DNA from: Takakia lepidozioides
Taxonomy: Eukaryota > Plantae > Bryophyta
Assembly: GCA_030704615.1 (NCBI GenBank)
Contig: CM060734.1
Coordinates: forward strand, 39,742,001-39,806,000
DNA length: 64,000 nucleotides
Direction: 5' to 3'
Part shown: one piece after another, positions 1 through 27,678 of the stretch
How positions within the stretch are numbered: position 1 is the first letter of the stretch
Layout of the letters: each line of letters opens with the position of its first letter
Translations under genes and position numbers: made by a program
The notes under the pieces: generated by a model
Database searches by the model: none
What the model was told of the DNA's origin: nothing
Seen by the model: only the letters and a program-made list of their open reading frames with translations

Positions 1-756
1 GAGCGAGTCAAGCACATAGGGATGATGCATGTGACCTGCAAGAACCCTATCATTTATACTAAGTGGTACAACAGCCCACATGTTGCTATGCTTGGTCGCT
101 TCATCAATTTCTCCCCACACTGAAACAGTTTGAAGGGCCTCACCCCACCGTCACTAGCAATGCAGGAAAGATTGCAAGTTGGTAATATCAATCAAGCCCT
201 TCTTGATACTGTCAACACGATCCAGCCCCTGCATAAACGTCAACCTGAGAACAAGGACTGGATGGCGGAGATTGACCGGAAGCTCGAGGCACATTCTATA
301 TCTATCCGTACAGACCTGCACACCGACATCAACGATATGGAGACCCAGCTTGTAGACTCTATCACACACCAACAACTAGAATACCATAAGTACATGTTAT
401 CGCTACACAAATCCATCACCGAATCCTTGGGCCAAAATCTGGCAAACTTTTACCATCACGCGGGCCTCATTCTCGCAAAGTTGCCCCAACTCCCTGGCTC
501 CACCTCTACTCATGACAACGGGACCCCACCACCTGTGGAGCCTGGCTCTCTCTCTCATCGCCACCGCCCTGTCATAACGAACTTCTTCCATGCGGCACCC
601 GAACTCAATGCAATGCTGCACCCACAGGCCAAATCACGGCTCCCCAACGTGGCTGTCAACCTTGAACGCAGTGGAGAATCGTCACCTGCTCCCAACACAC
701 ACGCCGTTACAGCAGCTTTCGCTCTCTCCGCTGCACACAACGATGCTCATGCGTAA
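1..756 (+). pseudogene. C-terminal part of a putative LINE ORF1
   Basis: Frame 1 is open from base 1 except for TGA at 121-123; the 208-aa ORF has a helical/coiled-coil-like stretch. Position upstream of the APE-RT ORF. No diagnostic motif. Confidence 0.45.
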
Positions 757-3354
757 TTCCCTGGGGCAAAGCTGCACCCAACAGGCTTACTCTAGCTTCC
801 GAGTCGCACTCTATTCTCTTCTATGTGTTGTTTCCTTTCTCGTACTTTTATGTTTCAATGTATCCTGCTCAAAATGTTACTCTACAGCTCTGAATGATTC
901 CACCACGATAGCACACTCAATACAAACTCTCACTTTCTCTCCTACTTACTCTCAATCGTCACTCTGCACTACTGGTGTCCCCTGTCACCACTCTCCCCTC
1001 TCTCTACAATTTGCAATCACATCCCACGGTCTCAATAAAGCCATCAATCTCAATCACTACTAACCTAGGCCAACCGCGCCCTGCCCTGCCACCCGCCTAG
1101 CCACATGTTCTAGTCACGCCACGTGCCATAACCAGATCGCTGCTGACTCTCCCCCACGCACGTTTATATCTCAGCACCCCCACGTCTTCCTCCTCAACCC
1201 CAGCTATATCTGCACCCGAGACCGTTTGTACCCCACCTCTCCCTGCGTGGACCTACCATACCCCGCCACCTGCTGGCCCCTCCCACCTGCAACCCACACT
1301 GACCCTACCACCCACGGATGCACCGCGCGTGCAACCTTCCCCACCCTTGAAATTAACAACCCCCCCCCCCACATGCTCCCAAATTTAAATCTGTATAAAA
1401 TTCCCCCCACCCGTTACCACCCTCGCCCCTTATATCACTGCACCCACCCTGCCCTGCCACCTCAAGTCTCCTGGCATTATTACCTGGCACCCCCCAGAGC
1501 CCAGTGTTCAAATCCCCATACGCCAACACCACGCTTCGTGTATTGTACGGTCCTCTACACTACCCACCATATTACCCGCTAGACTTCCTAACGGTCCTAC
1601 CGACTATACGGTCCTACTAATACGCCCCAATACAAATAAAATTATAGCCCCCCACACTCATATGCCTGCACCAAATAGAATCATACTTTCCCACACTCAC
1701 ACATCCGTGACACGCAACCTGTATTTCATTCATTCGTGGATGCGTTCATCCACGTCCTCACCCAACGCCGTGCATCCACGCAACGCGCCTACCCTCCTTA
1801 TACTCTCCACACTACCAACAGCCACCCCCACCGAACGTCATCTCAGTCACCCTCGGAAACATCCATTCACTACCTGCCCAATTATACCCATATACAAAAA
1901 TAATAAGCCCATACTCCTACCCATGAACACCATGCAAACTTGGATAAATGTACCTCATCCAACCCAGCTAAATACACATACCCCTCCCCGCTACGGCTCC
2001 CCGTATCCCACCCATTTAGACTCATGCTCCCCACACCTTTATAATATGCCACTACATAATCGATACATGCTCACCCCTAACCATACCCCCTGCACTCACA
2101 CTCCTCTTACCCATCACCGACACTCATCCAAATTCAGGGTCCTTCATCCGTGCCTCTGCCCACACTCATCCATCCGAGTATGTCGCCCACTTATCCAATC
2201 TCCCCCACTCTAATTAAATCTATACTCCCCACCCAACATACATCCACATTAAATTTTTACCAACCCCACCACATGCGCTCCTACACAACAAACCCCTTCC
2301 ATGACCACCAGACGACTCCACACACTAATCTCAAAGCAATAAAATCCCCCCCACACACAAAAACAACCAGCTCCACACGTCCCCACCACGACACCACCAC
2401 ATTAACCCCCCTAATACACCTTTTCAACAACTACCCCATGCATCCCTACCCCCCGTTCCCTTAAAATCCAACTTATAATACACTGCCCACATGGGAGATA
2501 TCACCAAAAACCTCTCGCATCTAAACATTCATCTCACCATCCACCGTCCCACTCTAAGCCCTATAAACTTGCCTGTGAAACGCTTATACTACTACGCTGC
2601 GGCGACATCCACCCCAACCCAGGCCCCTCTACCATCACTAGCATCATCAACAAGCTTTCCACAGACCATAAAGCCAGATATGCACTATATTTCCAAGCAG
2701 ACATTGTTTCCCTCGTACTTGCATATCAACACCTTAATGGCCACTTCTCTCCTTTTCTCCCCACCCCTTCCACCAATAACCGCAAACCCACCCACCCAAT
2801 TGCCATCTTTTGGGCTCCCTGCCTGCCAACACCCTTTTCTAGTCAGTGCCACCCATAAACTTAGCACATATCCCATACAACACCTCATATTCTCACTAAT
2901 CATCATCATCTCCCCAATACCCTCAATATGCAACGACTACTTTCGAACCCAACCAGACACACGCATTTGTTCACTACTACAACAATTGCAGGATTTACCC
3001 ACGCTACCTCACAGATATCTAGCACCCCCACACTACCTACACAACCTCCACGAATCTCTTGGCTTACTACAAGCCCAACCTGGAGTAATCCACAGGATTC
3101 TCGGCAAACATCTGGCACACCCACTTGCAACCATTCACGAACTAGATCTCGTCGCCAACAAATTCCCATTCCTCTCCAAAAAAATTCTCACTGCAACCCT
3201 TCAAGCCAGGACCGGCATCCCTGGATATCAACCCCCGCCCATGAAACCGACACCCACTACCCCACCCTACATGGCCAGCTCCACCAGTGACTCACCTCCA
3301 ACCCCCCCAAGATCACACAACCCCCCACACACCTCCTCTTCCCTGCAAGCACAC

Positions 3355-4135
3355 GCACTCAACATACTTCCTTGGAATGTCGGATCACTTGCCACCAGCA
3401 TTCAAAGCCTTATCCATCTCACAGAGTCTACACCCCCGCACATCATCCTACTACAAGAAACTAAACTCAACACACACAACCCCAATAGTTCATATATCAA
3501 CAAACTCCTTCCAGCCTATTATATGTTGTATGGTAGCTCATTCACAGCCGCACAGTGCCTAACTAGACGTTCCGCGCCATAGCATCCTACCCGGGGCGGG
3601 GTGGCTTTTGGTATTCTCCGCACACATCACTCCCCTAGCACCATGGTCAAAATGCCTGTCGCTCTCCCCCTCCGCTCACACCTTCAAATCATCAAACTCC
3701 ACCTCCCCGCGCTCCTCCCCATTATCCTTATACACTTGTACATGCCCACACACGCCGAAGATCTCCCCTTGATCCCTGATATCCTATTTACCATCTCCAA
3801 CACACTAACCCAATCCTCCACCGACTCCCAACACTACATCCTAGGAGGCGATTTCAACAGGGACATTGCCCTGATGGGTCACACATACAACGGCATACGC
3901 AAAACTCCATCCCCTGCAGACCAGGAATGGGCCAAGTTTACTCAATCACACCACCTCCGTTATATACCCGCCGACCATCATTATTCCAGACAAGGTGGAC
4001 ACAACTACTCATCCTTAAGCCTTTTTTACGGCTTCTACCTCAGGACACAAAATGACACCCCAACGTACCTTAACAGTCATGTGCACATTAATAGTTTATG
4101 CAACTCAGACCATTATCCCATTTCAATAACCCTCC
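3355..4135 (+). pseudogene. LINE AP-like endonuclease domain (APE)
   Basis: Motifs ILPWNVGSL, IILLQETKL, ILGGDFNRD, NSDHYPI; one in-frame stop at 3580-3582. Confidence 0.92.
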
Positions 4136-5089
4136 CACCATCCCTCATCCCCTTTAGACCCATTCCACCCATACATGTTCCACCGCCGCAATCTAGAATT
4201 TTATCCCCACTCCCCCACAATAACATAGTCACCTTTCTAAAGCACTTCCAACCAACATCCTGACACATTATGCTAAAACTCTCTGACATACTCTCCGAAG
4301 CAAACCTTGCGCAGTCCCCAGACAAAGCCTGGATCGAAGCCGAGATCATACTCACAACTTCAATGAAAGAAATGACCAAAAGTGTCATTGCCACCTGCTC
4401 TGCCCCTCCTGAAATCCCACAAACTCCACGCTCAAAACAAAATGGTGGCTACCTTACCCGTACTCAAAAACATACATGGACATCACATCTTAACACATAC
4501 CACATGATCAGACGCGCCCTTACTATTATACCTACCACTACCTCCATACACCCGAGGAATAACTAGACATCGGATCCACGTATCACTTGCCTAAATACCT
4601 TGACAACATGTCAAGCACTTATGCCTCCACCTGCCAATCCTCAAGATATTCCTAATTGGATAGCTGCTCTCTCCAAAGTTGGAAGAGATGCCAAAAAAGC
4701 CGCTTACAGTATTACCAAACAAAAAGCCACCGCCAATCACAAAAAAAAATTCTCCTCTTTTAACCAACTACTATGTGACCACCCCAAAAAAACTCACAAA
4801 GCCATCTTTAACCTTGCCCTCAACCCACCAATCGATTGTCTCAAACATAGGCATGGCCACCTGCTAACTAATCCAATGGACATCAACCAAGAAATATGGT
4901 TACAAGCATCCTCGACCTACACTCCCACAGTTACAAACTGTCTACACCCTAGTCTCCACACTGCCAACTGTATGTGTAAAGCTAAATACTATCCATGGCA
5001 TGATATCGATGGCTTCTCGATTGACAGCAGAGGATCCCCAGCGGACCGCATTCTAGACTTATTCACAATAGATCTCTACAAATCATGTC

Positions 5090-6080
5090 TCAAAAAACTA
5101 TCTAAATCTAAAGCCCCGGGCCCTGATCTTATCCCAAATGCCATACTTCAAGTATTGGACCCTCAACTTCATCACCTCTTCTTTAAATTTTTTCAACTAT
5201 GTTACAAACTGAAACGAATCCCACACTCTTGGAAGCATAGCCGCACCATTTTACTCTTTAAAAAAGGTGACCCTACAGATCTTAGTAACTACAGGCCTAT
5301 AGCACTGGCCAACACCATATACAAGCTATTCACCAGCACGCTCACCACAATGCTCTCAAGCTATGGCGAACAACACCAAATTCTCAGTGACCCCTAAGAA
5401 GGATTCTGCGCTACGCGTAGTACAACAAGACAAATACAATATGTTCTATCTGCCCTCGAAGATGCTAAAATTACAAAGCAAGACATATATCTCTTATATA
5501 TCGACTTTAAAAATGTCTTCGGCTCCTTAGATCATGCTAGGCTACTAGCTATCATGCTTGATCTTGGGTACCCCACTGATGCCGTCCAACTTATAGGAAA
5601 CATCTACACAAATAGTACCATTGAATACTTTGGTGCCTACTATGGCTCCACCCCGCCTATCTCCATCCTCCGAGGAACCATCCAAGGAGACACCTTAAGT
5701 CCTTACCTATTCATTATCTTCCTAGAACCCCTACTCCGCTGGCTCGCCCGTGGCAAACTTGGGTATCAATACAAAACCTCCTCAAGTGACATCTCAGCTG
5801 CAGCATATGCAGATGATCTCGCCATCCTAGCACACAAACCACACCACCTAAACCGACAAGTTCATAAACTATTTCGATTCAATCTATGGTCAGGCATGGA
5901 ACTCAGCTTACACAAATGCGCCATCACTGCGCCACACATCACAGTCGGCTCACTAAAGCAGCCATAGCCTCACATTGCAAACTCTACGTACACTACCAAA
6001 ACACACCTTTCCCCTTCCTGGGACCAGATGAGCCATACACCTACCTGGGTATCCAATTAATACCCTCCCTCACCTGGCAC
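5090..6080 (+). pseudogene. LINE reverse transcriptase domain
   Basis: KAPGPDLIP, YRPIALANTIYKLF, YIDFKNVFGS, GTIQGDTLSPYLF, AYADDL, YTYLGI; stop at 5395-5397 and a frameshift near 5940. Confidence 0.95.
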
Positions 6081-7167
6081 ATCCAAAAAAACTCTACATC
6101 ATCCAAACTAGCTACCAACAATCTGGCCCTGCTCAAATCCCCAATTGTCATCCGTCCGAAACTATCAATTATTCAATCCGTACTACAAACACAAATCCAA
6201 TACTCATTTCACGCCGCACCCTTCTCCCTACCAGACATCAAAAAACTTGATAAAAAGCATTATTCAACTTACAAAGCGCGTCTGTGGCTTACCAACTAGT
6301 ACCCCTAATGCCCTCGCGCAACTCCCAACTGACAGCTACGGGATCGGTTCGAGCCCCTTAATCATATCATATGCTCGCACATTAGGTACACAATTAAAAG
6401 AAGCACTCAACGATCCTGGACGACTCGGTCTCATCTATCAGGGCCTCCTCAAACACCTCGCATTAAAATACAATGGTCTTTACTCACTATCATCATTACA
6501 CCCACAAGCCTGCCTACACTCCCCTACTGCCCGCACACTACTCATTCTACGCCAAATGACAATCAGCATACAAACCGACCTGCTAGATTACCCTAACACC
6601 TCGTCACCCCTAGAACGCGCATGGCTCACAAGCCCTTTCTTATCACAATTCGACATCTCTCATCCAAAACAAAAAATCCCCATCCTCACCTATTTCAAAG
6701 AACGCAAATTACCACCATCACCCAACTTACCACCGCCTCCGGCCGTCGACTCTTAAAACCCAGCAAATTCACTCTTAAATTCTCCCGAGCTACTACCAAA
6801 ACCACTCGATACCTACACCATCTCCGAACCCTCTTCTGTCATCCCTCAGCAACCTGCACCCTCCACTGCAATATCCCATGTCTCTACTATCCCCATACGG
6901 TTCAAGACCTACTCCCCCAGTACCAATCCTCCCCTACTACCTCCATCTACCAACACTTAGAACGGCATATGCCGCCAATACCCCACAATCACAGAACCCG
7001 GCCCCCATCTACTAACACTACCTACAAACATACCGAACTTGACCACAACCCGAATGTGCCATTCACCCCTCACCTAATATGCAAGGCTCCCCCACCACTC
7101 CCAACCACTCACCACCCCCCCCCCCCCCCCCCCGTCTTCTCCACACAACGATAACAATAATAATGCA

Positions 7168-7310
7168 TACATCATTGAAGCCATACTAGGAGTCAAAATC
7201 CAAACATCAATCGATGCCTTTGGTGCCACCTGTATTGACACCTACTACCACTGTAAATGGGTTGGTTACTCCTCAGAAGACAACACATGGCAAATAGAAG
7301 ATGATCTATT
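7168..7310 (+). other. Chromodomain embedded in LINE ORF2
   Basis: Frame-1 translation (not in the ORF track): YIIEAILGVKIQ...YYHCKWVGYSSEDNTWQIEDDL, matching the chromodomain consensus YxVExIL...YxVKWxGYxxxxNTWExxxNL. Confidence 0.8.
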
Positions 7311-7777
7311 TGGCCTACATGACGATTGTGACCCCGAACACAATCTTGCCCTTCTCACCTCCTTCCATAAACATACTAACATGGACTACTTAACACACAT
7401 TCACCAACAACATACCACCCCCGCCCAACTTACAGATAGTCATTACATTCACCAGTCGATCTCTGCCCCTAACGTGCACATATGCATAACTGAGTGTAAC
7501 CCCATCAAAGATGTCAAGCACTTTTTTACGCGGGCCCCTGCCTTTCCAATATTTACGCTCAACACGGCCGCTTCATTGGAATCATTCCTAATAACAGATT
7601 AACATGGTTGTGGGAGAAGTATTATGCTGCCAACTCATACCCACAATCTCTACAACCCCCAAAACAAGACTTCGCGACCAAATTATATTGGCTCGTAGAC
7701 CGCTACCTCAAAGACACCCCCCCCCCCCCCCCCCCAAGGAGCCACGATCCCTCACCCGACTAGAAATGGCATGCGCA

Positions 7778-8065
7778 CACCATGCCGTACCCCAAGATAT
7801 CCTCGCCTTGCTTATCCATACATTCCAGCTTACTCACTCATATTACTCCAATCCACTGACATGTCCTATGGACTTGCACACATTTTCCAGCCCGCACCAC
7901 AGGGATTGTCTCTTTGGAGCTACCGGTAATGCTACCCAACATACCTGGGAGGGTAAGGGCTTTGCCCACCCCCCCTCTGGCCCTCTCGCTTATGAAGCTC
8001 TCCAATGGGCAAGATTCGCAACACACTCCTCTCCTTTTGCCTCCACAATCCTCATCCTCACACAA
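7778..8065 (+). other. PCIF1/CAPAM-like N6-adenine methyltransferase-fold segment in LINE ORF2 (catalytic motif degenerate)
   Basis: HAVPQDILALLIHTFQLTHSYYSNPLTC..FSSPHHRDCLFGATG..WEGKGFAHPPS parallels the PCIF1 core as recalled (..LP..VF..L...F.V..ECFASPLNC..Y.S....D..FGS.G....GSFEANPPF). Confidence 0.55.
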
Positions 8066-8489
8066 CAAAATACACCTAGCACCCCCCACCCTCTCCTACG
8101 ACTCCCGAAAGGGGTCAATCTACTCACCACAATTGACCCAAATCAGCTTAAGTACGCTCATACCCCCCTCTTCCCAAGTACCTCAAAAGGAAAGAACCTA
8201 CCGCTAACTCTGATTCTACATGTCCAAAACCCCCTTCACACAAACATACCAACACCTTTTTTCCACCAGCTAGACCAGTTGCTAACCATAACTCATAAAA
8301 TGAAGGCCACCATCCATCACCCAGCTACACCCCCACACACCCGCACAACCACCACATCTCCCCGGATCAGAACAAACAAAGCCTGGGGCATGGCACAACC
8401 GCGCCCCCCCAGGTAATACCAGCAACCCTCCTTCCCCCAATCCCCTTGATATACCAGCAAAACACCACCCTCAAGTATCCCCCGACAAA

Positions 8490-8890
8490 CTCACAATACA
8501 CTGCTAGATCCCTCACCAAACCCAATGCAGGCTATGGAATTTATCACGCCGGCAGCGGTCGGGGTGTTGCCCTCCGGCTCCCTGGCCCTGCCACCATCCT
8601 GAGGGCTGAGCTCATGGCCATCCACGACGCCCTCTCTCTACTTGACGCTTCCCCCCCCCCCCCCCCCCATACTACATTTTTCAATGATAGCCTCACCTCT
8701 CTATTTCTTATTCGAAATCATATCTCCCGCTCTTCTTCCCAATATCATCACCCCGACCGCAACCTCATTGCCGACATTGTCCAAAGGGCCATTTCCAAAA
8801 ACCATCCAGTCCATTTCCTCAAAGTCCGCTCGCACACTGGCATTCATGGTAATGAAGAAGCAGACCTACTCGCTCAACTCGGAGCCTCTC
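8490..8890 (+). pseudogene. LINE RNase H domain
   Basis: GYGIY, ILRAELMAI, FNDSLTSL, FLKVRSHTGIHGNEEADLLA; the first motif reads YTARS instead of YTDGS. Confidence 0.9.
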
Positions 8891-9237
8891 AACCCACAAT
8901 CGAACCCACAACCGACCCTATTCACATCGCCCATACCCACCCCTTCTGGTTCATACACCCCGTCTCGGACCCCCCTGCACCCGGACCAATCCAAAACCTT
9001 TTGACCACTCTAACTAGAGAAGCAAACAAGCAAGTTGCAGCCTCCCTCAGTCACACCAAAGTACACATCCAAAAATGGACTCAATCAAATGTATTACACC
9101 ATAAACTCTCTAATTATTTCTGGCTAACCAAAACTACCACTGATGCACAAATCCGACAAACACTCAAATTCAGATACGCCCAATACATGGGTCACCAGCA
9201 CAAACACATCTTCTGGCCGCATATGTTCCCTTCTCCA

Positions 9238-9906
9238 TACTGCCCATTATGCTCAAGCACTCACCAAGCTCGTGACACCTGGCCACATCTCCTCAACCAA
9301 TGTACACACCCGATCATACATGGCCTTCATATCACGCGACACAACTAGGCAGTCTGGCACCTCCATAAGCTCTTTCTAAACCGTGCTGAAACCAGATGGT
9401 TCTCGCTCATAAACGTTGGCACCTACCAAGGTCGGCCACCCGACCACATTGTGCCACCCTGGATGCTACCGTGTATATGTACCCGATCACCATGCTCATG
9501 CCCTGCTAGGCTTTGTCCGGACATACTCCTTGTACAAGGCCTACCCATTAACACCCTACCCCCCACCTCACCATCCTCACAATTCACCATTCATTTTATT
9601 GAATTCACATTTTGCCACGATCGTTACCCCAATGACTCGATTTTAGAAAAACGTAAAAAATATGCCTCGCTTATCCGTGCAATCAGACGGTATGGATGGA
9701 AAACTGGGCCGTTAACCGTCATCACCGTCGGTACTCGAGGAGGCATTCATAATGTCAGCATCACCGACATACATGATAACTTCAAAATTCCCACTCTTCC
9801 CATTCACAAATGCTTCAAAGCAATTCACCTTACGGCACTCCGTTCACTCACAGCTATTATCACCAACAAATGCCAACTGGAATCCGGCACCTCAATCGCA
9901 CCCTAG
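9238..9906 (+). pseudogene. CCHC zinc finger plus restriction-like endonuclease (RLE)
   Basis: CPLC..DTWPHLLNQC..RHN, then (R>C)PDILL..IEFTF..EKRKKY..GW..VITVGTRGGI, the typical C-terminus of RLE-type non-LTR elements; stop at 9346-9348. Confidence 0.88.
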
Positions 9907-9943
9907 GTCCCTCAGGGTACCCCTGGGTGCCCAGGGGTACCAC

Positions 9944-10937
9944 TGTCGCGCGGCTTTTACTCACCCATCCCTTTGCTATCCGAGGCGGAAACTCCAAGAT
10001 AGAAGAGTTGGAAATCTCTAAGCACTCAGCCCGCTCAGAACAATCAGTCATGACCTACAGCTAGTGTATCATGGGGGTGTTTCCTATTTGTTTTCCTTCC
10101 CGCATTCATGTTAGCTAGTTACCTTACTGTGGTAATTAAGTATCAGTTTGCTTCAGCAATCTATCGGATTTCATCAACTCATCCATTCATTCCACAGCTT
10201 CACTCAGATCTCTCTACACAGTGTGAGTATGAAGTGTGTATCAGATTAATATCTATCAAGTATCAGTCTGAAGCCATGGAGTCTCTAATCTGCTCTACAT
10301 TACAATTCTATAGCTTGCATTTATTAAGCATCAACAGATCGTCCTCCTCCTACTCCGTGCTCTCCCTCTTTCTGCTCAGAGATACGCTCTCTGCCTCATT
10401 TTCCCCCCGTGATATCCGAAGTCCCCCAATAAGTGCTCCCCCACTCCTTCCAGCAGTGATTCCCCAAGAAGTGATCTTTTTCCAGTCTCGCTCCTCGCTT
10501 TATCTTCCTACCCGTTGTTCTAACCGTTTCCCTCACTAACCGTCATCCGTGAACTAACATGTTCCATTCGCAGATGTTGTTCCCCACAGTCGTTCCCTGT
10601 CTGCTATCCGTTCCCTATGGTGTCGTGACAGCTGTGTTCAAGCTGTGTGACTGTGTGTTGGACTGTTGTGTGGAGTGTGTCGTGTCTGTGTGTGTGGACT
10701 GACGGGCTGTGTGTTGGGTGTGAAGAGTGTTGGCTGTGACGGGTGTGTCGGACGAGCTGTGCTGTGACGGGCTGTGTCGGACTGTGACGAGCTGTGTTGG
10801 CTGTGACGGGCTGTGTAACCTCCCCTAAAGTGCACTGCTGTCACCCCTAAGGCTCCTGTTGGTCTCAGTCTGTGCAAAAATTAAGGGTACCCCACAGATC
10901 CCGTAAAAGTGTCTAAGTCCCAGACAGTCCTCTAACA
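9944..10937 (-). mobile_element. Solo LTR of gypsy family C
   Basis: TG...CA ends; aligns end to end with 49419-50464; 5-bp TSD ACCAC at 9939-9943 and 10938-10942. Confidence 0.95.
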
Positions 10938-11076
10938 ACCACAAACTACATTCTACGGTCACCTAGTATCCCACAAGACACCTTTCTTTTATAGGGCCCA
11001 CCCTCGAAAGGGGGCAGTAGCCGCAAGGCGAAGTGGCTCTTAGTTACGCCGGCTTCAGCCGGAGTCTTCTCTCTCT

Positions 11077-12134: not shown

Positions 12135-12810
12135 CACTAGTAATCACCACAAGAACAAATCCCATCTTCAAAGTGGTGAAAGCGGTTAGCGTCTTCTTGA
12201 TGAGACAGAGAGGCATCCTAGGGGTCGTCTGATCAGCCCAAAACCAATGGCCAGCTTCTCACTGTGGTGGCAAAGAGAAAATTCCTTTTCCTCCTCCCCA
12301 CATCATGCAATACAAAGTGCGTGTCATACCCCACCTCCTTCATCTGCCCAGACAATCTTCTCAGCTCAACATGGATTTCCTTAATTCTAGGATGCAACTT
12401 GTCATCTACAATGAAGGTGTGCACCCTGTTGCCAACCTCAATGTAGCAGCGACCTGGCTCCTTTTTAACCCCTCTCACCTTCATCATTCTTCTCACCTAT
12501 GCAGTATCATCCCACTTGCCAACTGCAGCATAGACGTTTGATAGCAACAAGTCGTGACATCCTGTTCATCCTACTTGAGCATAGATGTTGCCACATGTTT
12601 AGCCATCTCCACATTGCCATGGATTTTGCAGGCACCAAGCAAGGCCTTTCATACCACAACATCTGGATTGATTGGCATTTTATTAATCATGTCCACTGCC
12701 TCATCCAGTTGTCCCGCACGTCCAAGAAGATCCACCATGTAGCCAAAGTGCTTTACTGTCGGAGTGATACCATGATCTTGACTCAGGGAATCAAAGTAGT
12801 GTCTTCCTTT
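12135..12810 (-). pseudogene. 3' part of a PLS-class PPR-E+/DYW RNA-editing factor gene
   Basis: GVKKEPGRCYIEV..HTF..HP, CHHSEKLAIGFGLI, RFHHFEDGICSCGDY* (the terminal Trp codon reads TAG); the CxxCH segment is deleted; frameshifts. Confidence 0.92.
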
Positions 12811-13153: not shown

Positions 13154-14514
13154 TCGTATCTGTGAGTGCCAGATACGAGTTAGTTGTAGCACTTGTGATT
13201 TTTGCTTGAGAATGAGAGAAACCAGGTTGTTATGCAAGGAGCACCGTGGAGCTCTTGGTTGTTAGAAGCGGAGGCGATGTGGGTTACGAGGTGGTAGACC
13301 TTGGCATTCGATCTTCAGTTTCAGAGATGAAAGCATCATGCTGCAGGTAATTCCAGAGCACCTTGATGGTTTCAGATTGTGTACATGCATGAGCAAGCAC
13401 GATTGGAAGAGGACCAGTCAAGAGCAGGTTATAGTGGCTTTGGTGGCAAATCTGAGAACTAGCCTTGGGAATGCGAGCTTTCATTGTGTGAAGGATTGCA
13501 GACCAAGCGAAAGGGCTGATTTGGCTTGGGGCAAATCAGTGCACTTTGTGGAGTATGTTGAGATTGGGTTTCAATCTCGAGCTTTAGCATTGAGAGGGCT
13601 CTTGTCATGGCAAGAGTAGGGCTGGAACAGGAGCTAAGAGATGCGGCAAGACAATGGAATGTGCACCTAGGGTTTCAGAGCTTGGAAGAAGAGCTCTTGC
13701 ACCACAAGAGGAGTGTCTTGTGGCTGGAAATGTAAGCCTTAGGGTTTCAGGAGCTTGGCAAAGGCTGTGGAGTGCTTAGTCTTGTCTTAGAGAGCATCAA
13801 TGAGCCAAGGAGCCAAGATAGGGGGCTGATACTCTTGTGTGAAGAGGTTGTGTGTGGAGCATGTATTCAGCTCATTGAAGCTTCCATCTTCAAGCTTGGA
13901 GGGCAAGCAAGGAAGAGGGAAGGGCTGACTTCCTTTATGTGAGGGCAATGCATGTGTGGAGCATGTTTTCAGCCTATTGAAGGCTTGTATTTTCAGGTTG
14001 GTGGGTGCAAGAAAGGAAGCAAAGGGACTGATTCTCTTGTGGTGAGAGTGGGGCATGTGTGGAGCATGCCTTCAGTCCATTGGGCTTTTGTTTTCAAGCT
14101 TTAGAGAACTAGAAGAGAAGGTAAGGGGCTGATCTGCTCTTATGTGACAGTCCGACACTTGTAGAGCGTGTTCTTAGTTGTTGGGTTTCAACCTCAAGCC
14201 TAGATAGAGCATGGCTCTTGAAGTGGCAGATGTAGGGGGCTGGAATAGGCTCTAAAACAGATGCTATGACCAAGGAAAACGCTTGAATGAGTGCTCACAA
14301 GGGCTGGAAACCAGCAAGGCTTGGTTGTTTGCCATTGAGTTTAGTGGCGTGTTTGGGGAGTCTAAGTGAGAAAGAAGGCTTGGTTTGTGGCAACCATCTT
14401 CCTCATGGCTTAGGGCTACTATTGGTGGGGTGTGGGAGCCGAAAGAGCAAGAATGGCTTGGCGTGGCTAAACCCCTTGGAGAAATGGCTAAACTGCCATG
14501 AGTGGCCATGGATG

Positions 14515-15010
14515 GGGCCTATGGCCTGTGGGGTTGTGACCTGTGAGGGGTTGTGACAGGCTGTGCCTGTGGCCTGTGGGGCTGTGACAGGCTGTTCCCT
14601 GTGGCCTGTGGGCCTGGCCCGGCTGTGCCCTGTGCCCTGACCCCTGTGACCTGTGTAGGGCTATGACAGGCTGTGATGGGCTGTGAGGGGCTATGCCCTG
14701 TGGCCTGTGGGGCTGTGACGGGCTGTGACAGGCTGTGGCCTTTGGGGCTGTGACCCCTCTGACCTGTGTAGGGATGTGACGGGATGTGACAGGCTGTGGC
14801 CTTTGGGGCTGTGACCCCTGTGACCTGTGTAGGGCTGTGACAGGTTGTGGCCTTTTGGGGCTGTGCTGTGTGCCTGTGACAGGCTGTGACCCCTGTGACC
14901 TGTGTGGGGCTGTGACAGGCTTTGACCTGTGGCTTTGGGGGTGTGATGGCTGTGGTGTGGGGCTGTGACGGCTGTGACCAGTGATGTGTGTGGGCCTGTG
15001 CTGGTCTATG
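14515..15010 (+). repeat. Degenerate GGCTGTGAC/GCCTGTG tandem array in the family A 5' UTR
   Basis: Visible short-period repeats; longer inverted counterpart at about 35160-36109. Confidence 0.9.
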
Positions 15011-15889
15011 GTGGCCCGTGTTGATTTGTGGACAGCTTGTACTGACTCGTGGAGGCACTGGTGGACTGCCTAAGGACTGGCATGTCTTGAAGGCCGAATT
15101 TTGAAGCTCGTGGAGGACGGTTTGAGGAGTATCTTCATGATATTTCCATGGTCATGCAAGCGAGGGAAGAGAGGAGAGAAGAGTGTTGGGATGAGGGCAT
15201 GCTGGGGTAGGCATTGCTTTAGCTTCTCTTCCTCGTAGTTTTCCACCCTCTCATTAGGCCAAGACCTTTCCGTAGGTGGAGGCAAAAATCAGTCCGGGTT
15301 TGGGCTGGGGTATCCTTGCAGAGCAACACCGTGGAGTTGTTTTGGTGGGAATTGTCTGATTTCTGTTTGGATCCCCTCCATACCTGCATGCTTGACTGTG
15401 CGCCATGTTAGTTTTGTGTGGGCGCTTGTTTTTATAGGTGATTCGTCCGGATTTGATTCACCGGCCAGTCCTAGAGCATGCTGTCGATTGTGAGGCTGGG
15501 GTGATGACCAGTCAGACCATCATTGTTTCTCCTGTGGTGAGGTTGGAGGTGATGACCAGCCAACCATAGGAGTGCTTGCGGTGGATGTAGGTGCAGGTGT
15601 AGGCTATGTTAGGAACCTTAGTATTCCAAACCATAAGCCGCAACAGGTTCTCTACCCCGGTTACCTTGTGGAGAGGGGGGTTAGGGACCCCGGTTGAGTG
15701 ACAGTTTGTCAACACGGAGGTGCCACTAGTTGCTGGGGACAGTGTCGGTTCGAGCACTAGCGATACTAGTGGGTACACGAGACGAGGTGTGCGGTTTAGG
15801 CCACCTTCACCTCCTGTGTCTTCTACGGAAGGTTCTGATTCAGATTGTGAATCAGGAGGACTCACACCGGCGGTGCAAGTTGTTTCCTT

Positions 15890-17100
15890 GCCATTGTTGT
15901 GGGACGCGATGGAGGAGATCTATGGAGCTACCAAGGGGCCACGAAGGTACTCTGGGGCAATAGGCACCATCGAGTTGGATGATTTTATCCAAGAGTTTGA
16001 TAGTTGGTCTATTTGCAGCAAATGCGCAATCCACAACTATTTACGTCTTTCATGGCATGGAAGGGGCTGTTTCAGCACCTTGAGGGGCCGCCTATGGATG
16101 ATACCATGAGTTCAGGGGGGGCATGAGGTTGAGATCGAGGAGTGGAGGATGTACTGGTCACCCGACTATGTCTCCATCATTAGGGGCACTAGAGCCACGA
16201 GGGCAGTGGCTACACCTGCCGCTGCATCGGCAGCTTCAGCAAGCAGCAATGGGACTAGTGGGACTGGTGGTACAGTAGCTACGACGTCCACCCAAGCCAC
16301 TACCGCACCAGCACTAGCACCCGTGCCTGCCTTCAACCCTGTTGTGGAGTTCTTCGAAGAGTTGAGAGGGAACTACCAAGGGGTGAGGACAGAGAAGTTG
16401 CGGAGCTTGCAAGAGTTCCAACGGAAGCCGACCGAGAGCTTGAGGGAGGCTTTCACTCGCATGAGGCGCTTGATAAATGTAACCCAAGGGGTTACGGAAG
16501 CTCAGGCAGTCCAATTCTGGTATGGGATATTGGACAAGGAGCTGAGGAGAAGGGTGCGGGATGCAACTCTCCTACAAGCGGCCCAACCCACCTTAGCAAA
16601 TGTGTTTTTGCTGGCAGAGCGGATAGAGCTCAACATGGTGGAGGAACGAGTGGTCATGGTGGGATTTGCTAAGGAGACACCACGGGGTAGTGGTGCTCCT
16701 AGCCAACCACTACCTCAACGTGCTCAAGGCAACAAGGGGCTCAGGTGAAGCTCAGGGAAGGGCAGAGAGGACCTCAGATGCAGGGGTCTCTCCCTTCATT
16801 TGCTGGCCAACAACGGGCGGATGTGGTGTGTTGGACATGTGGAGGACCCCATGTCAAGAAGGATTGTCCAGAGGGAGGCAAAGGGCCGGCACATGCACAG
16901 CCTGCACAGTTGCAGTGTGGGCATTGTGGCAAGCACGGGCATGGAGAGGCCCAGTGTTATGGTTTGCATCCTGAGTTGCGCCCAGGCCAGTTCCAAGGGA
17001 ACAATGGTGGCCGGGGCGAGGTGGAGCAGCCCAGAGAGGACGAGGTGGCCAGCCACGGGTGAGGCCAAGGGCAAGCTCAACATGGCCAAGGACGCGGAGG
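15890..17100 (+). pseudogene. Family A gag with two zinc knuckles
   Basis: FQRKPTESLREAFTRMRRL; CWTCGGPHVKKDC; CGHCGKHGHGEAQC; frameshifts. Confidence 0.9.
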
Positions 17101-17849
17101 TCAGGGTGTTGACCAAGGCATGGCCAACCGGCTTCAAGCTAGAGCAGAGGCTCGCTGCCATGGCTACAGCTCAGGTGGTACCGGCTCCAAGGCCGGATGG
17201 TCCACCTCCTGCTCCTGAGGGAGGAGATATGGGAGGCATGGGATTCATGTGTGGAGCAGCACTACCACTAGTGCAGGTGGAGTCTGCTGCAGCCGTGACT
17301 CGAGGAGCAGCAGAGTTCCTGAGCCACGAGGTGCAGAGGTGGAGTTGGATCCACAGCGTGGGGAGGCAAGCCGTCAGGCTAGGCTTCCTCAGTCATTCAC
17401 ATTGGCGAGAGACAGTGTCGACGCCATCCATGGCACCTAGTTCTCGCCCGACTGTTACCGAGGCGGAGGTTACTATGCCATTGGGGAGAGCTACACGGGT
17501 AGCACCACTACCTAGTGTTGCCAAGGCTACGGCAGCTAGTGTGCTGCTGGGAGCGGCCACATCTGTGTGCCAGGCTCCATTGTTCTCGGCTACCATGATT
17601 GCGACGCCGGGGGTAAAGACCAGCTGAGGTGTTCAGGCTGGCAGCTACACTCTGTGAGAGTGGGGAGGTTACTTCATCTTCTGCGGAGATAGTGGGAGGT
17701 GTGTAGTGCCGGAGGGATCCTCGGATTTGAGGGTCAAGACTGCCACGGCGGCGCCATGGCAAGCTGCAGCTGCAAGGTTGATGGAGCTGCCAGCTAGGCC
17801 AGCCATTGAGCGCGCCATGGTGACACCTGGAGTTGTCATGTTAGACAAC

Positions 17850-18260
17850 CAGGATGGCATTTTCTGTTTGAGTGGACCGGCAGGCAAGAGGTACCGGCCA
17901 CTGCGGGTCTTGTTGGACTCGGGAGCTCAGCCATTGATGCTGGGGGAGCTGCTATTGCAGGCTTGGGCCTCACGGAGGCGGATATAGAGCCTTGTCCTTT
18001 CAGATACAGACGTCTCTGGGAGGATCGGAGCAAGCTCGGGGCATGACACGGCGTGAGTTGGCTATCAGACTACGGCCGGATCACCCTACAGATGGCTCAG
18101 TGATGCGAGCCAAGGCCATTGTGACAGACGCAGTCTCGTACGATGTCCTGGTTGGTGGGGCAGTGTTGTACCCCATGGGCTTCACCCTGGATTTTTGGGA
18201 AGAGTCAGCTTCCTATAGGCCTGGATGGCAGTCAGGGGAGGGCCGGCGTGTGCAGCTCCC
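17850..18260 (+). pseudogene. Family A aspartic protease
   Basis: RVLLDSGAQPLM and YDVLVGGAVL motifs. Confidence 0.88.
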
Positions 18261-18609
18261 TGTGACGTTCATAGGAGGAGTTGCGGTTACCCAGCGGGGC
18301 AAGATGCCGACACTAGCAGCATTCACAGCAGTGAGTTGGCCTGGAGAGTTGCTTGAGGGCAACTCATTCAGAGGATGTGCCACCTCGGGAGAGCAGGATG
18401 ACATGTATGGTATGGCGGAGTTGCCTGTCATGGTTGCTCAGACTCCATTGTGGGGCACGAGCAAGGATTTGCAGCGGGATGCTGATCGACGGGTGCAACA
18501 AGCCTGGGTGGAGGCTTTTGTACCGTCAAGAGAGGAGGAGAGTGGGGATTGCACCAGGACCACCTATTGTCTCCATTGGACACCACACCTATTGTGTGGC
18601 AGTATCCGG

Positions 18610-19545
18610 ATGAAGGCATTTGTCTTCTGGACTTGTTTGGCGGGATCAGCACCAAATTGGCTGCTGTGTTACAGGCAGGTTTACGAGTTCGGCGTTACCT
18701 ATATGTGGAGAGGGATGAGACTGCACGACGCGTTTCACTTCGCCATGTTGCTCAGTTGGGCAGCGGTACCCTGAGTTGTTGTCGATGTCAATTCGTGGAT
18801 ATCAGCAGGCCTTGCCAACAGACATTTCGTTGCTGGGGGCGCAGGATTTGGAGCGGGTTGGCTCCATTGATCTGGTAGTGGCAGGTTGGCCTGCCAAGGG
18901 CATTCATCAGCCGGGCATGGCAATGGATTGCGAGACTCAAGGTCGGGTCTGTTTTGGGAGATGGTGCGGGTTTTGCGCCACTTGCAGCTTCATCAAGCTG
19001 TATCTCCAGCATACATCTTGGAGAATGTGCCACTGATGGCGATTCTCGGGCCAGGGTGATGGCCAGTGTGCATCAAGTCCGGTCATGGCTTGGGTCAGCA
19101 GTGTTGCTAGATGCAGCTACAGTGGGGTCACGGGCTCATCGTCCACGGCTATGGTGGACTAACTTGATGCCACCCGCACTGCTCAAGCGTGCATTTGATG
19201 GGGTGCAGCGGCCAGCACATCTCACAGTGGATACATTTTGGACACAGGGAGGCAGTCTCAGCGTGTGAGACACGATGACCGTTCGCCTTTGGCAGTGTCA
19301 ACAAGGTGGGTCAACCACGAGCACATTACCTACACTGCTCAGCTTCCCAGGATCGCATGCTTTCCGGGATAGTGGACCTGGCCTCCTGTGGGATGCTCAG
19401 TTGCAGCAGTTAGTGGAGCCTAATGCTGACGAGCGTGAGCGGGCAATGGGTTTTACCACTGGTACCACGGCGGTGCCGTCTCTTTCTGAGGCATCACGTC
19501 GTCAGTGTTGGGGCAAGCATGGATCTCAATTGCTTGACCTGGATT
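18610..19545 (+). pseudogene. C5 cytosine DNA methyltransferase domain (DNMT3-like) within the gypsy polyprotein
   Basis: Motif I LLDLFGGIS, II YVERD, III ADI/TDI, IV DLVVAGWP(C)QG, VI YILENV, VIII HRPRLWWTNL, IX ERERAMGF, X RRQ..G..MD. Confidence 0.92.
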
Positions 19546-19899: not shown

Positions 19900-21285
19900 G
19901 TTGCAGTTACGGAGGACAATTGGGAGCCTGACATTGGACCCATTGTCACCGGAGGAGAGAGACGACGTATACGGCGGTTCCTGAGGGCTTACAGGAATTG
20001 CTTTGCCTTCAGTTTGAAGGACTTGGGAGCACTGAAGGGTCAAGAGATCCGTATTGAGTTGGCCACTGACACGCCAATCTTTCGGAGACCATAGATACAG
20101 TGACATGGAGAGGTCTTTGATTCAGATGAGGACTCAAGATCTCTGGGAGGCAGGTTTGGTGGAGCTCTCTGGTGGAGAGTATGCTTCAGCACAGTGATGC
20201 CAGCCAAGAAGGATGTCTATGGCAATTGGACGGAGAGACGTATGTGCGGTGATTACCGGCCTGTAAATCGTCAGACCAAGTCCGATAAGTATGCCATGCC
20301 AACACCAGAGGAGATCTTTGATGCCATAGGGCATGCTAAGGCCTTTAGCACTTTGGATTTACGATCCGGATATCACCAGTTGCCAATCAAGGAGGCGGAC
20401 AAGCAGAAGACGGCATTCTGGGGGATCAATGAGCACGGCATGCAAGTTTTCAGAGAGTCATAGATAGGATTCTAGCAGGGGTGGACTTTGCTCGGTGCTA
20501 CATAGATGATATCATCATCTTTAGTGTTACGATGGAGGAGCATGAGAGACACCTTCAGGTGGTATTGGAGCGCTTGAGAGCGCACGGATTGAAGTTGCAT
20601 CCGGGGAAGTGCAAATTTTTCCACAACCAGATTGAGTATCTGGGTCACATGATATATCCTGGAGGATTGGGGGTACAGCAGACTAAGGTAGAGGCCATTG
20701 CACAAATTCCACCCCACGGATGTGAGCCGAGTTGAGCTTTCATGGGTTGGCAAACTATTATAGACGGTTTGTCAAGGGATTAGTACCATTGCAAAGGCTC
20801 TAACCAAGCTGACCAAGGTGGACCAGGAGTGGCAGTGGGAAGATGAGCAGGAACGAGCTTTTCAAGAGCTCAAGGCGAGGTTGACCTCGGCGCCTATCCT
20901 GAGACGACCTATCAGGGGGCGTCCCTTTCAGCTGCATACGGATTGGAGCATGCTGGGGCTTGGAGCGGTGCTCACACAGGTGGATGATGAGGGAAGAGAG
21001 TTCGTAGTGGCTTACGCTAGCCGCTCGAACAACGCTGCAGAGGCTAAGTACAGCTCATATGAGGGAGAGTGCTTAGCTGCAGTGTGGGCCGTGGCACACT
21101 TCAGGTGCTATCTATACGGCAATCTTTTCACCCTTGTCACGGATCACCAGCCACTCAAGTGGTTGATGGAGTCAGACAAGCTTACGGGGAAGCTTGCACG
21201 GTGGGCACTCATACTCCAGGAGTATGACTTTCAGGTTGTGCATCGACCGGTTTGGTCAATCGGGATGCGGATGGATTGAGTCGCA
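19900..21285 (+). pseudogene. Family A RT and RNase H
   Basis: [55 protein letters not shown]. The FGLKNAP region seen in copy 2 is deleted here near 20440. Confidence 0.95.
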
Positions 21286-21639
21286 ATCCATGCATGAGCC
21301 AGCAGGATGACACTGGAGCTCGGTGGCATGGTGAGACGGACGAGGAGATGGTGCCGGGATGGCACGCATCTGCATTTTTGTGTATCTTGGCATCGGGAGG
21401 TCAGATTGGACCTACAACAGGGATGACTGTAGACGGAGTGTCTGAGGACCCTGAAGCTAGTGATGAGCCAGGTGGTGCCAGAGATATACATGAGGATTCG
21501 GCTGTGTTGGACTACCTCCGCACGGGAGACACGGCAGCCATTGTGACTGCCCAGGGAGAGGGATCGGATCCTGCAACGAGCCAAGAGGTTCAAGTGGGAG
21601 GGGATACACCTACTTCGAGTGTGGAGGGTGGTCGGGTGA

Positions 21640-22740
21640 GGATTGTGCCTCACCCCACACAGCGTGCACGGTTAGTGCGGCATGCCCATGAGGAGTTGGG
21701 GCATTTTGGAGTGCGACGCACTCACAGTTTACTGGCAGTATTGGTGCGTGGTATGCATACAGAGGTGCAACAGTTTGTGGCTAGGTGCATGGTGTGTGAC
21801 AGGGTGCGTGCTTCGTTTAACGCCCCTACACCACAGTTGCATCCTTTACCTATCATGGGATTGGGGCTACAGTGGAGTCTTGACTTCGCAGGACCGTTGC
21901 CACTGACTATGCGCCACCACAGATATGTGTTGGTGATGGTGGAGCACTTCTCCAAGTGGATTGAGTTGGTTCCATTGCCTGACAAGGCTAGTGAGGGGGC
22001 TGCGTATGCATTCTTGGATCGTGTGCTTAGCCGATTTGGTGCTCCAGCTGAGGTACTCACGGACCAAGGGAGAGAGTTCTTGGGGGAGTTTCAGGCTTTG
22101 TGTGATAAAGCCTTGATAGACCACCGCACCACTTCTCGGGATCATCCTGAGGCCGATGGCTTAGCAGAGAGAGTTTGTTCAGACGGTGAAGAGGGGTTTG
22201 CGCAAGTATGGCTTGCAGAAGGGACACCTAGGAGATTGGGATCTTCAGGTTCCTTGGTTAGCCATGGGCTACAGGTTCAGCAAACAAGCATCACTTGCCT
22301 CCTTCTCACCATATTTCCTTCTCTTTGGCCGAGAGCCGGATTTGCCTGCAGCCATTCGTAGGGACACTGCTCAAGTCCTTAACCTTGACGATCCGGACGT
22401 GTGGGTACGTGCATGTGATCAGCGTGCAGAGTTGTTCAAGAAAGTCATGCCCATGGCTTTTGAGAACCTTGCCATTGCACAGCACCGTGATACGTTGAGG
22501 TATGCCACTATACGTGGTGGAGGATATCGTCCTGGGGTTCAGAGGTTTAGCCCTGGTGACTATGTTTATTTGCAGCAGACTGCTCCTACGACTCTGGATG
22601 TTACTCAGGCGTGTTATTTTGAGGGTTCGAGAGGTGTTGCCCTCAGGGTCCTGATCTTGGAGGGTCGGGATGGCATGACTTGGAAAGACCATGTGCGTAA
22701 TTGTGCGCCATGTCACCTTCCCAATGTCGATGGCAGAGTT
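21640..22740 (+). pseudogene. Family A DDE integrase
   Basis: HEELGHFG..CMVC zinc finger, SLDFAGP, LTDQGREF, ADGLAER. Confidence 0.93.
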
Positions 22741-22774
22741 GACCCAAACTTGCAGTGGTACCTGCAGGTTTGAG

Positions 22775-22912
22775 GTGCATGCTCTGTGGGTCTGCCAAAG
22801 GGGCAGCCACCATGCTGGTGTGTGATCGATGCTCAAGAGTTGGCATATGGGATGCTTGACACCACCTCTTGAGAGGTCTGACGGAGATTGGTTATGTCCA
22901 CACTGCTTGGGA
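22775..22912 (+). other. PHD finger at the integrase C-terminus (copy 1, frameshifted)
   Basis: Same sequence as the in-frame copy at 26569-26710. Confidence 0.85.
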
Positions 22913-23175
22913 TAGTGGCAGTGGACATGACTAGAGGCAGCTAACAAGACATGGGAGGCCAAGCTCATAGGAGTCAATACACGAGATCCCAGGCTCAAGT
23001 TCACAGGTTGCAAGACGGCGACTAACGATGGGGCAACTCTTGCACCCGGCCTCTTGATCTATCGAGTTTGAGTGTAGTAGGGACAGTGGTGGAGGACTTA
23101 GTGAGGCTATGGTAACTATCACATCTTGTGGCTACCTGAACTTAGAGGGACCTAAGCACCAGCTAGGGGGGCGAT

Positions 23176-23354
23176 TGTGTGGACTAGTGACTGCCATAGT
23201 GGGCAGCATAGTAGCAGCCTAGTGACTGACTAGTTGTAGCCTAGTGGTTGGACTAGTGGGCTGGGACTAGTGGTATACTAGTGTGTGGTGTGCATATGTG
23301 TTGTGTGGTTTTGGACAACGATGTAGTTGTGTAGCGATATGTATGCGCACGACA
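23176..23354 (+). repeat. Family A LTR segment A
   Basis: TGTGTGG...GCACGACA, rich in ACTAGT; follows the PPT; repeated at 26974-27161 and 27491-27678. Confidence 0.93.
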
Positions 23355-23482
23355 GCTGTCAAGTTATTTCACCACTAGTGTGAAACTAGGTAGGAAATAG
23401 CTAGCTTTTACATATTGACATTTGGGATTGGCCCAAGTGTCAATCCAGGGGTCAAGGCAGATTTAGGCCCTGGAGTGGTTAT

Positions 23483-26600: not shown

Positions 26601-27678
26601 CCACCATGCTGGTGTGTGATCGATGCTCAAGGGGTTGGCATATGGGATGCTTGACACCACCTCTTGAGAAGGTTCCTGACGGAGATTGGTTGTGTCCACA
26701 CTGCTTGGGATAGTGGCAGTGGACATGACTGGAGGCAGCTAACAAGACATGGGAGGCCAAGCTCATAGGAGTCAATACATGAGATCCCAAGCTCAAGTTC
26801 ACAGGTTGCAAGACGGCGACTAACGATGGGGCAACTCTTGCACCCGGCCTCTTGATCTATCGAGTTTGAGTGTAGTAGAGATAGTGGTGGAGGACTTAGT
26901 GAGGCTATGGTCACTATCACATCTTGTGGCTACCTGGACTTAGAGGGACCTAAGCACCAGCTAGGGGGGCGATTGTGTGGACTAGTGACTGCCATAGTGG
27001 GCAGCGTAGTGGCAGCCTAGTGACTGACTAGTTGTAGCCTAGTGGTTGGACTAGTGGCTGGACTAGTGGTGGACTAGTGGTATACTAGTGTGTGGTGTGC
27101 ACATGTGTTGTGTGGTTTTGGACAGCGATGTAGTTGTGTAGCGATATGTATGCGCACGACAGCTGTCAAGTTATTTTACCACTAGTGTGAAACTAGTAGG
27201 AAATAGCTAGCTTTTACATATTGACATTTGGGATTGGCCCAAGTGTCAATCCAGGGGTCAAGGCAGATTTAGGCCCTGGAGTGGTTATCTTCACGGCAAG
27301 CCCGGGAGGCTCATCTTTCTCGAGTTGAGCCTCACCGCGCCTAGCTATGGCGCCGTAGTGTGGATTCCCCATGGCGTGGGGTGCACTTGGCTTGACTTGT
27401 ATTTGAGTGATGAGGTTATATATGCATGAGTTTATGCTTCAGCTTTGTGAGCTCGCATGAGCTTGTGCTTGTATTCTTCCTCTTTATCATTGTGTGGACT
27501 AGTGACTGCCATAGTGGGCAGCGTAGTGGCAGCCTAGTGACTGACTAGTTGTAGCCTAGTGGTTGGACTAGTGACTGGACTAGTGGTAGACTAGTGGTAT
27601 ACTAGTGTGTGGTGTGCACATGTATTGTGTGGTTTTGGACAGCGATGTAGTTGTGTAGCGATATGTATGCGCACGACA
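23681..27678 (+). mobile_element. Family A copy 2, 3' half (RT-RH-IN-PHD, then LTR segments A-B-A)
   Basis: Near-identical to about 20005-23482; ends ...GCACGACA at 27678. Confidence 0.95.
26569..26710 (+). other. PHD finger (C4HC3) fused to integrase
   Basis: CMLCGSAKGAATMLVCDRCSRGWHMGCLTPPLEKVPDGDWLCPHC. Confidence 0.95.

Follow-up and report, generated by a model that had tools for sequence, protein, structure and literature searches.

What does a stretch resembling the catalytic core of the adenine methyltransferase PCIF1/CAPAM do inside a LINE, and could it still methylate? The question arises from the window, the whole stretch of 64,000 nucleotides analysed here, in which the first-pass annotation had picked out four PCIF1-like sequence blocks beside a chromodomain and had read them as a possible reader and writer cassette within one LINE polyprotein. 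An answer calls for the identity of the host element, the ancestry and fold of the segment, its distribution among related elements and the state of its catalytic motifs.

A decayed Dualen/RandI element and its surroundings

The segment lies in the coding region of a decayed non-LTR retrotransposon of the Dualen/RandI type (about 2415-9906, plus strand), recognised from open reading frames, Pfam matches, a reverse transcriptase (RT) search and long relatives. Along the plus strand follow a 2A-like motif (GDIHPNPGP, 2601-2627) upstream of the APE, the APE endonuclease (3373-4122; Exo_endo_phos E 0.012, Exo_endo_phos_2 E 1.8e-5), the RT (5041-5964; RVT_1 E 2e-20, with the RT search and tree), the chromodomain, the PCIF1-like domain, RNase H (8497-8886; Pfam E 7e-11), a CCHC zinc knuckle (9241-9303; CPLC...H...C in the sequence) and a restriction-like endonuclease (RLE, 9514-9663) recognised by its PD...E...K motif. 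The RLE region has no Pfam match, and a homologous C-terminal region is found in 76 of the 120 best long relatives out of 191; in the same best 120 of 191, 2A-like motifs occur at 24 places, and such peptides are mentioned for Dualen in the accessible part of 10.64898/2026.06.17.732966. The hallmark pair of APE and RLE is present, with RNase H between RT and RLE, and since APE and RLE together define Dualen/RandI in the portions of PMC5029228 and PMC4640811 available, the element is assigned to that clade. In a tree that holds neither Repbase-named Dualen elements nor an outgroup, its RT groups among top RT relatives with Dualen architecture, Josephin included. Josephin, C48 and OTU proteases are common in the RT relatives, and none is matched in the decayed 5' ORFs of the window copy.

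The LINE context proposed by the first-pass annotation is thus sound, with APE, RT, RNase H and RLE on the plus strand; the Dualen identity had gone unnoticed, and the supposed polyprotein is broken here. While intact relatives encode one long polyprotein, the window copy has several stops and frameshifts, including one in-frame stop in the APE and one in the RT (5395-5397), and the position of the first catalytic Asp of RNase H reads YTARS against YTDGS in close relatives. The element belongs to a multi-copy family, for 255-478 contigs per run cover 7400-8500 in the one sample through whose contigs sister copies were viewed. A single match in a scan of metagenome loci (L001) proved to be a short peptide on a bacterial-looking contig and was set aside as chance. 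The element also shows marked C/A asymmetry between its strands, with a GC skew of about -0.45 for positions 1-10000, and four poly-C runs of 11-19 bases (1360-1370, 7115-7133, 7717-7735, 8651-8668), one of which coincides with a frameshift.

The remainder of the window is rich in other mobile sequences. A DUF659 domain at 57109-57756 (minus strand, Pfam E 5e-23) is presumably a remnant of a hAT-like DNA transposon. Repeats of about 1 kb, possibly LTRs, are present in three copies 83-94% identical (9943-10938, 36114-37136, 49419-50465), the first starting at 9943, 37 bases past the Dualen stop codon. Two tandem Gypsy pol segments with RT, RNase H and integrase are 94% identical (20005-23482 and 23681-27288, plus strand), and a PHD finger follows the integrase of a Gypsy pol (26285-26710, Pfam E 2.4e-11). 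Remnants of PPR genes of the PLS type, with an E+ motif and PPR repeats, lie on the minus strand at 12233-12493 and 59544-60020 and suggest a land-plant host; short-period tandem repeats are common to 14500-15150, 35000-36200, 53800-54350 and 58400-59050. A Gypsy-like element present as two inverted copies 93% identical (14522-19308, plus; 30833-35628, minus) carries a remnant of a C5 cytosine methyltransferase, matched by Pfam DNA_methylase at 31108-31857 (E 2.5e-8) and again near 18486-19265. It resembles the Gypsy-Dnmt3 of Klebsormidium, as far as the accessible text of PMC5890265 describes it, and sits here in an apparent land-plant genome; elements of the Gypsy-Dnmt3 type are said, in the available part of PMC6338049, to be absent from land plants such as tracheophytes.

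A PCIF1-type domain conserved across Dualen

All four blocks lie in the single open frame of ORF 7595-8416 (plus strand), as a direct check of the sequence confirms, and a profile of the family aligns them to PCIF1 in the motif order and spacing that had been noticed by eye. Block 1 spans 7781-7831; the strand-1 motif SYYSNPLTC (7838-7864) aligns to ECFASPLNC of PCIF1, with Ser in place of the acidic residue; the D-x-x-F-G motif (7889-7927) is the most conserved block of the family; and block 4 (7952-7978) contains the catalytic motif IV position, where HPPS (7967-7978) replaces the NPPF of PCIF1. The first-pass annotation had placed the module correctly and drawn it too short. Its Rossmann methyltransferase core, as delimited by the profile, AlphaFold2, Foldseek and VIA-align, runs over about 7769-8230, and an N-terminal part is found at 7551-7718 in the frame of ORF 7500-7763 (family profile E 4.6e-9). 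This part comprises a hairpin and two helices ending in LYWLVDRY, and the family profile aligns its last helix, in 6IRX and 6IRV, with the helix that immediately precedes the active-site loop of PCIF1. A change of reading frame within the module falls at a run of 19 C (7717-7735), which may be either a mutation of the window's copy or a sequencing error. Repeat comparison and a scan with the family profile found no second copy of the domain within the 64-kb window.

Taken alone, the window's ORF resembles PCIF1 faintly. PCIF1_WW (PF12237) is the only Pfam family it matches, over residues 59-127 with E 0.0012, and the score of 18.9 bits falls below the curated cut-off of 31.1 bits; phmmer with the single ORF retrieved no PCIF1 from the PDB, and a word-index protein search with the PCIF1-like domain gave no match. 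Its relatives supply what the single sequence does not. Among 1.84 billion representative proteins, phmmer found 122 relatives at E<=0.001, 66 of which match PCIF1_WW at E<=0.01 and 21 of which pass its curated cut-off (hand count); the Dam profile (PF05869) is matched by none of the 122 and nowhere in the window. A family profile built from the window segment and 84 of these relatives matches, below E 1, nothing in the PDB except PCIF1 from zebrafish (6IRX, 2.2e-8) and human (6IRV, 1.2e-5). The alignment spans about 200 columns and pairs the strand-1 motif with ECFASPLN and HPP with NPPF, which bears out the earlier placement of HPPS at the catalytic site. Because the profile of relatives matches PCIF1 alone in the PDB, the window segment is a true PCIF1/CAPAM homologue. 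The best three matches in a viral library come from giant viruses; two are named as PCIF1 WW domain proteins and one as a WW domain-containing protein. The ESM Atlas offers a lead and no more, with clusters at 0.91, one of which has Dam on 14% of its members and the others no name, and a PCIF1_WW cluster at 0.87.

Modelling points the same way. Folding the single window sequence without an alignment reached a pLDDT of 29, whereas the AlphaFold2 model made from the relatives' alignment has a pLDDT of 89.3 and a pTM of 0.85 and predicts a class I Rossmann methyltransferase fold whose nearest known structure is CAPAM. In Foldseek, ranks 1-6 are all CAPAM (TMq 0.61-0.66) and no other match falls below E 0.001; KsgA/Erm and further methyltransferases come next. 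VIA-align gives Z 12.7-14.3 against CAPAM (rmsd 2.9-3.4 Å, 156-167 residues aligned), Z 9.6-9.7 against RlmJ and ErmE and Z 8.5-8.6 against E. coli and T4 Dam. The part of CAPAM that the model covers is human residues 476-668 only. The methyltransferase fold that the first-pass annotation had supposed is thereby supported.

What the earlier view of a single element had missed is that the domain belongs to the clade. An RT search limited to proteins of 1361-4332 aa gave 191 matches, the best 120 of which were analysed; they were gathered by their RT and not by the PCIF1-like domain. A precomputed PF12237 label is attached to 43 of these 120, and a profile finds the domain in 93. Among the best 120 of 191, it is present in 88 of the 90 proteins that reach RNase H, where it always follows the RT and precedes RNase H, and in 75 of the 76 that have RT, RNase H and RLE. 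It is fused in frame within intact ORFs of 2,000-4,000 aa. Given its place between RT and RNase H in 88 of 90 relatives, the PCIF1-like domain is a core Dualen domain. The profile made from these RT-found relatives, scanned against 1589 six-frame pieces of the window, returns ORF 7595-8416 at E 1.7e-19 against E 1.3 for the best unrelated piece; the window's ORF had itself seeded the profile by which the domain was initially located in the long relatives. The nearest relatives by RT are long single ORFs, and those with a named source come from Haematococcus, Pleodorina and Parachlorella. A quick, unrooted RT tree without an outgroup was made from the window and 61 representatives (80% RT identity) of the 93 domain-bearing proteins; the window's own sub-clade has no member among these 61 intact representatives, and its best RT identity is 49%.

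The chromodomain said to adjoin the module is real: Pfam Chromo (PF00385) matches 7168-7311 (plus strand) at E 1e-6 and 29 bits against a cut-off of 25.1, and Chp1, CBX1 and CDYL are matched in the PDB. We take Tyr 7168, Trp 7258 and Tyr 7267 to be its aromatic-cage positions, the alignment showing the cage only in part. A chromodomain of Pfam grade was matched at this place only in the window and in one relative (P0003), and a chromo-like W..WEP signature lies upstream of the PCIF1-like domain in 17 of 61 representatives (shuffled mean 1.25); a partly circular profile raises the count for a chromo-like module to 35 of 61, and a PHD pattern is found in 10 of 61. The window's chromodomain matched none of the long relatives (best 120 of 191), and a chromo-like profile from long relatives matched P0003 and not the window's chromodomain. 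It is thus position, together with P0003, that argues for homology of the two modules. A reader module seems to be ancestral as well, lying upstream of the PCIF1-like domain. In six relatives (P0150, P0163, P0186, P0198, P0199 and P0243) a PHD finger precedes the PCIF1-like Pfam match by some 160-210 aa; in P0150, P0186, P0198 and P0243 it stands directly before the chromo-like W..WEP.

Decay of the catalytic motifs and a proposed role of the domain

Active enzymes of this class read [DNSH]PP[YFW], the final aromatic residue stacking on the target base, as set out in the accessible text of PMC4738411, and mutation of the catalytic motif inactivates CAPAM, according to the part of PMC8287941 available. 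The family consensus is not the NPP[FY] that the first-pass annotation had in mind. Motif IV in the 61 intact representatives is canonical once (SPPF) and NPEY in 20, the others being nearly all mutually different. These 20, scattered over the RT tree, keep E..FASPL as well as NPEY. NPEY requires nine changes on that tree, of which well-supported branches force at least three, and the four nearest neighbours of the window's RT also have it (unrooted quick tree). The combination of E-x-F-A-S-P-L and NPEY is probably the ancestral Dualen state, lost several times, which the first-pass annotation had missed.

In the window's surroundings the decay goes further. An acidic strand-1 residue is present in 54 of the 61 intact representatives and in only 14 of the 102 relatives that cover both motifs, 67 of which have Ser there; in the window's clade of a domain tree made by a quick method from 69 sequences with 95 or more aligned residues each (56 rows, SH-aLRT 98), none has one. 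The fourth residue of motif IV is aromatic in 9 of the 88 relatives without the acidic strand-1 residue. The best-preserved close relatives of the window read HPPN, HPPD, IPPH and HPHT, and the variability among close relatives is inflated because many of the 122 are fragments of decayed copies. Among sister copies, His125 is fixed, with no Asn variant among the variants listed (40 of 43 rows), while the codon of Ser128 shows three base changes in run X1, all non-synonymous, which account for 33%, 41% and 8% of the depth. The rest of the domain is a different matter. P87, D104, F107 and G108 are kept in 58, 59, 59 and 58 of the 61 intact representatives, and of the 40 variants listed over 71 bases around the motif, 19 are synonymous where 11.6 would be expected (p=0.01, from a single sample whose rows are not independent). 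The window family is kept under selection, and this synonymous excess, together with near-invariant N-terminal motifs beside a variable motif IV, indicates a drifting motif IV within a retained fold. To judge from these motifs, catalysis in the window's lineage is doubtful. The proposed writer role finds no support in a lineage with a fixed His, a variable fourth residue and no acidic residue left in strand 1; the hedge that the module is possibly inactive fits the altered motif IV and the missing acidic residue well.

On balance, we lean towards a catalytically decayed domain that binds nucleic acid, whether the element's RNA or an RNA:cDNA hybrid, and does not methylate it; the NPEY forms of algae may still be methylating enzymes. 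Binding rather than methylation is likely because the catalytic motif is altered in the window's lineage, and the predicted fold and the position of the domain suggest what it may bind. An ancestral Dualen would have captured a PCIF1-family enzyme lacking both WW and the greater part of the helical domain that binds the cap; starting from E-x-F-A-S-P-L and NPEY, motif IV would then have decayed repeatedly with the fold retained. Anchoring the ribonucleoprotein on chromatin would fall to the upstream chromodomain, or in algal elements to a chromo-like remnant or a PHD finger; the PCIF1 fold, placed between polymerase and RNase H, would keep hold of the template or hybrid while target-primed reverse transcription proceeds. 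There are precedents, in that the methyltransferase domains of DIRS elements were considered RNA binders that are likely inactive (accessible text of PMC4738411) and eukaryotic DAMs yielded no 6mA in E. coli (available part of 10.64898/2026.05.21.726589). Against a pseudo-enzyme, the N-terminal half is very well conserved, so that cofactor binding could be kept; His is permitted as first motif residue, and some sister copies read the canonical HPPY.

It is unlikely that, descending from an NPEY enzyme, the fold in the window's lineage has become a ligand-free structural spacer for the folding of the polyprotein. The drift of both catalytic motifs in the window's clade and the largely absent cap-binding helical domain, CAPAM being covered over 476-668 only, would suit a spacer; however, the domain is missing in just 2 of 90 relatives whereas accessory Josephin, OTU, C48 and PHD modules come and go, and loop residues round the pocket remain conserved. 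Quite unlikely, in our estimate, is a non-catalytic domain whose ligand is SAM/SAH or a partner protein, and which would either sense metabolism or imitate host PCIF1 and so bring the ribonucleoprotein to transcribing Pol II or capped RNA. An N-terminal half far more conserved than motif IV speaks for it, as does the mimicry proposed for DIRS domains in the accessible text of PMC4738411, but the acidic strand-1 residue is missing in the window's clade and no WW domain, the binder of the Pol II CTD in the available part of PMC8287941, was found.

An active N6-adenine methyltransferase in the window's family too, with functional HPPY copies that mark the element's RNA or new cDNA beside the chromatin read by the chromodomain, as in the earlier reader and writer cassette, we hold to be decidedly improbable. 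HPPY does fit the [DNSH]PP[YFW] pattern, and a Monosiga PCIF1 homologue has HPPF (PMC4738411 and its supplement, accessible parts). The A at 7977 reaches about 40% of depth in runs X1 and X4, and HPPY is read in at least three contigs of run X2 (six with 7977A, minus two with 7976C and one with 7978A); the canonical motif occurs in 4 of 116 closer relatives, and those four read HPPY. More 6mA is reported on DAM-LTR copies in the available part of 10.64898/2026.05.21.726589, but the same part says that streptophytes are without abundant genomic 6mA; moreover, the fourth motif position is free among sister copies and relatives, with the low aromatic count in the non-acidic group, and the acidic strand-1 residue is gone. 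Finally, a chance resemblance or a fragment of a host PCIF1 gene inserted in one copy, as the sub-threshold Pfam score, the phmmer result and the alignment-free pLDDT might suggest, is next to impossible and is refuted by the 122 relatives, the profile and fold matches, the conserved position in 88 of 90, the in-frame fusion in intact ORFs and the hundreds of sister-copy contigs over the region.

Significance and comparison with known systems

The Dualen polyprotein hereby gains a near-universal and apparently undescribed domain, and LINEs join DIRS and LTR elements as carriers of an adenine methyltransferase fold, here in a domain nearer to PCIF1 than to Dam. In literature searches, conducted outside Repbase and the original Dualen paper, no account of a Dualen element with a PCIF1 domain came up; an earlier mention is quite possible, since automatic Pfam labels already display the association. 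The broken copy of the window matters as a pointer only. Further, motif-intact (NPEY) and motif-decayed domains exist as natural pairs within the Dualen clade, and because Dualen-4b is active in Chlamydomonas reinhardtii lines (accessible text of PMC9977147), the role of transposon methyltransferase folds has become testable in a tractable host. A wider reading, which we put forward tentatively and consider possible rather than probable, is that Dualen LINEs, the clade joining RLE-type with APE-type retrotransposons, ancestrally carried a cassette of chromatin reader and PCIF1-derived methyltransferase, that NPEY forms are active N6-writers acting on the element's own transcript or nascent cDNA hybrid, and that pseudo-enzymes arose from them repeatedly. 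If true, the NPEY Dualen elements would be the first LINE-encoded m6A/m6Am writers.

The element shares APE, RT, RNase H, CCHC and RLE with Dualen/RandI non-LTR retrotransposons, which reportedly go back to Kojima and Fujiwara in 2005. The accessible portions of PMC5029228 and PMC9977147 list SET, C48, Josephin, APE, RT, RNase H, CCHC and RLE for Dualen, and name there neither a PCIF1-like or adenine methyltransferase domain nor a chromodomain. In the available parts of PMC5029228, PMC4640811 and PMC9977147, Dualen is placed in green algae and cryptophytes, whereas the window copy probably lies in a land-plant genome.

With PCIF1/CAPAM itself (PDB 6IRV-6IS0; PF12237), the domain shares the fold over the whole methyltransferase domain and the order and spacing of the motifs, at 17-20% identity and embedded in a retrotransposon polyprotein. 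NPPF has become HPPS in the window and NPEY or other variants in relatives. PCIF1/CAPAM has an N-terminal WW domain, whereas none is matched in the flanking ORFs of the window or in the 15 relatives scanned, and a chromodomain stands upstream instead; only the C-terminal end of the cap-binding helical domain appears to be kept in the window family.

Among methyltransferases of other retroelements, SymbioLINE-Dnmt is also a LINE product, but its enzyme, as described in the accessible text of PMC5890265, is a cytosine C5 methyltransferase in ORF1 unrelated to the PCIF1-like domain. A parallel is provided by DIRS elements, whose methyltransferase domains belong in the PCIF1 clade (Iyer et al. 2016, PMC4738411, accessible part); the terms 'Dualen' and 'Exo_endo_phos' are absent from the supplement as available, and the portion of its PCIF1 list at hand holds no LINE architecture. 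The preprint on DAM retrotransposons (10.64898/2026.05.21.726589, available part) covers DIRS and LTR elements, including combinations of chromodomain and DAM, and its main text mentions neither PCIF1, CAPAM nor Dualen. As described in the accessible literature, the Dam domains of DIRS and DAM-LTR/EpiLTR elements likewise place an N6-adenine methyltransferase fold in a retroelement polyprotein, sometimes with a chromodomain, yet they are of the PF05869 type, travel on tyrosine-recombinase or LTR carriers and mostly keep NPP. The carrier in the window is in contrast a LINE with APE and RLE, the relatives match PCIF1_WW in 66 of 122 cases and Dam in none, and the predicted fold stands nearer to CAPAM (Z 14) than to the Dam of E. 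coli or T4 (Z 8.5-8.6).
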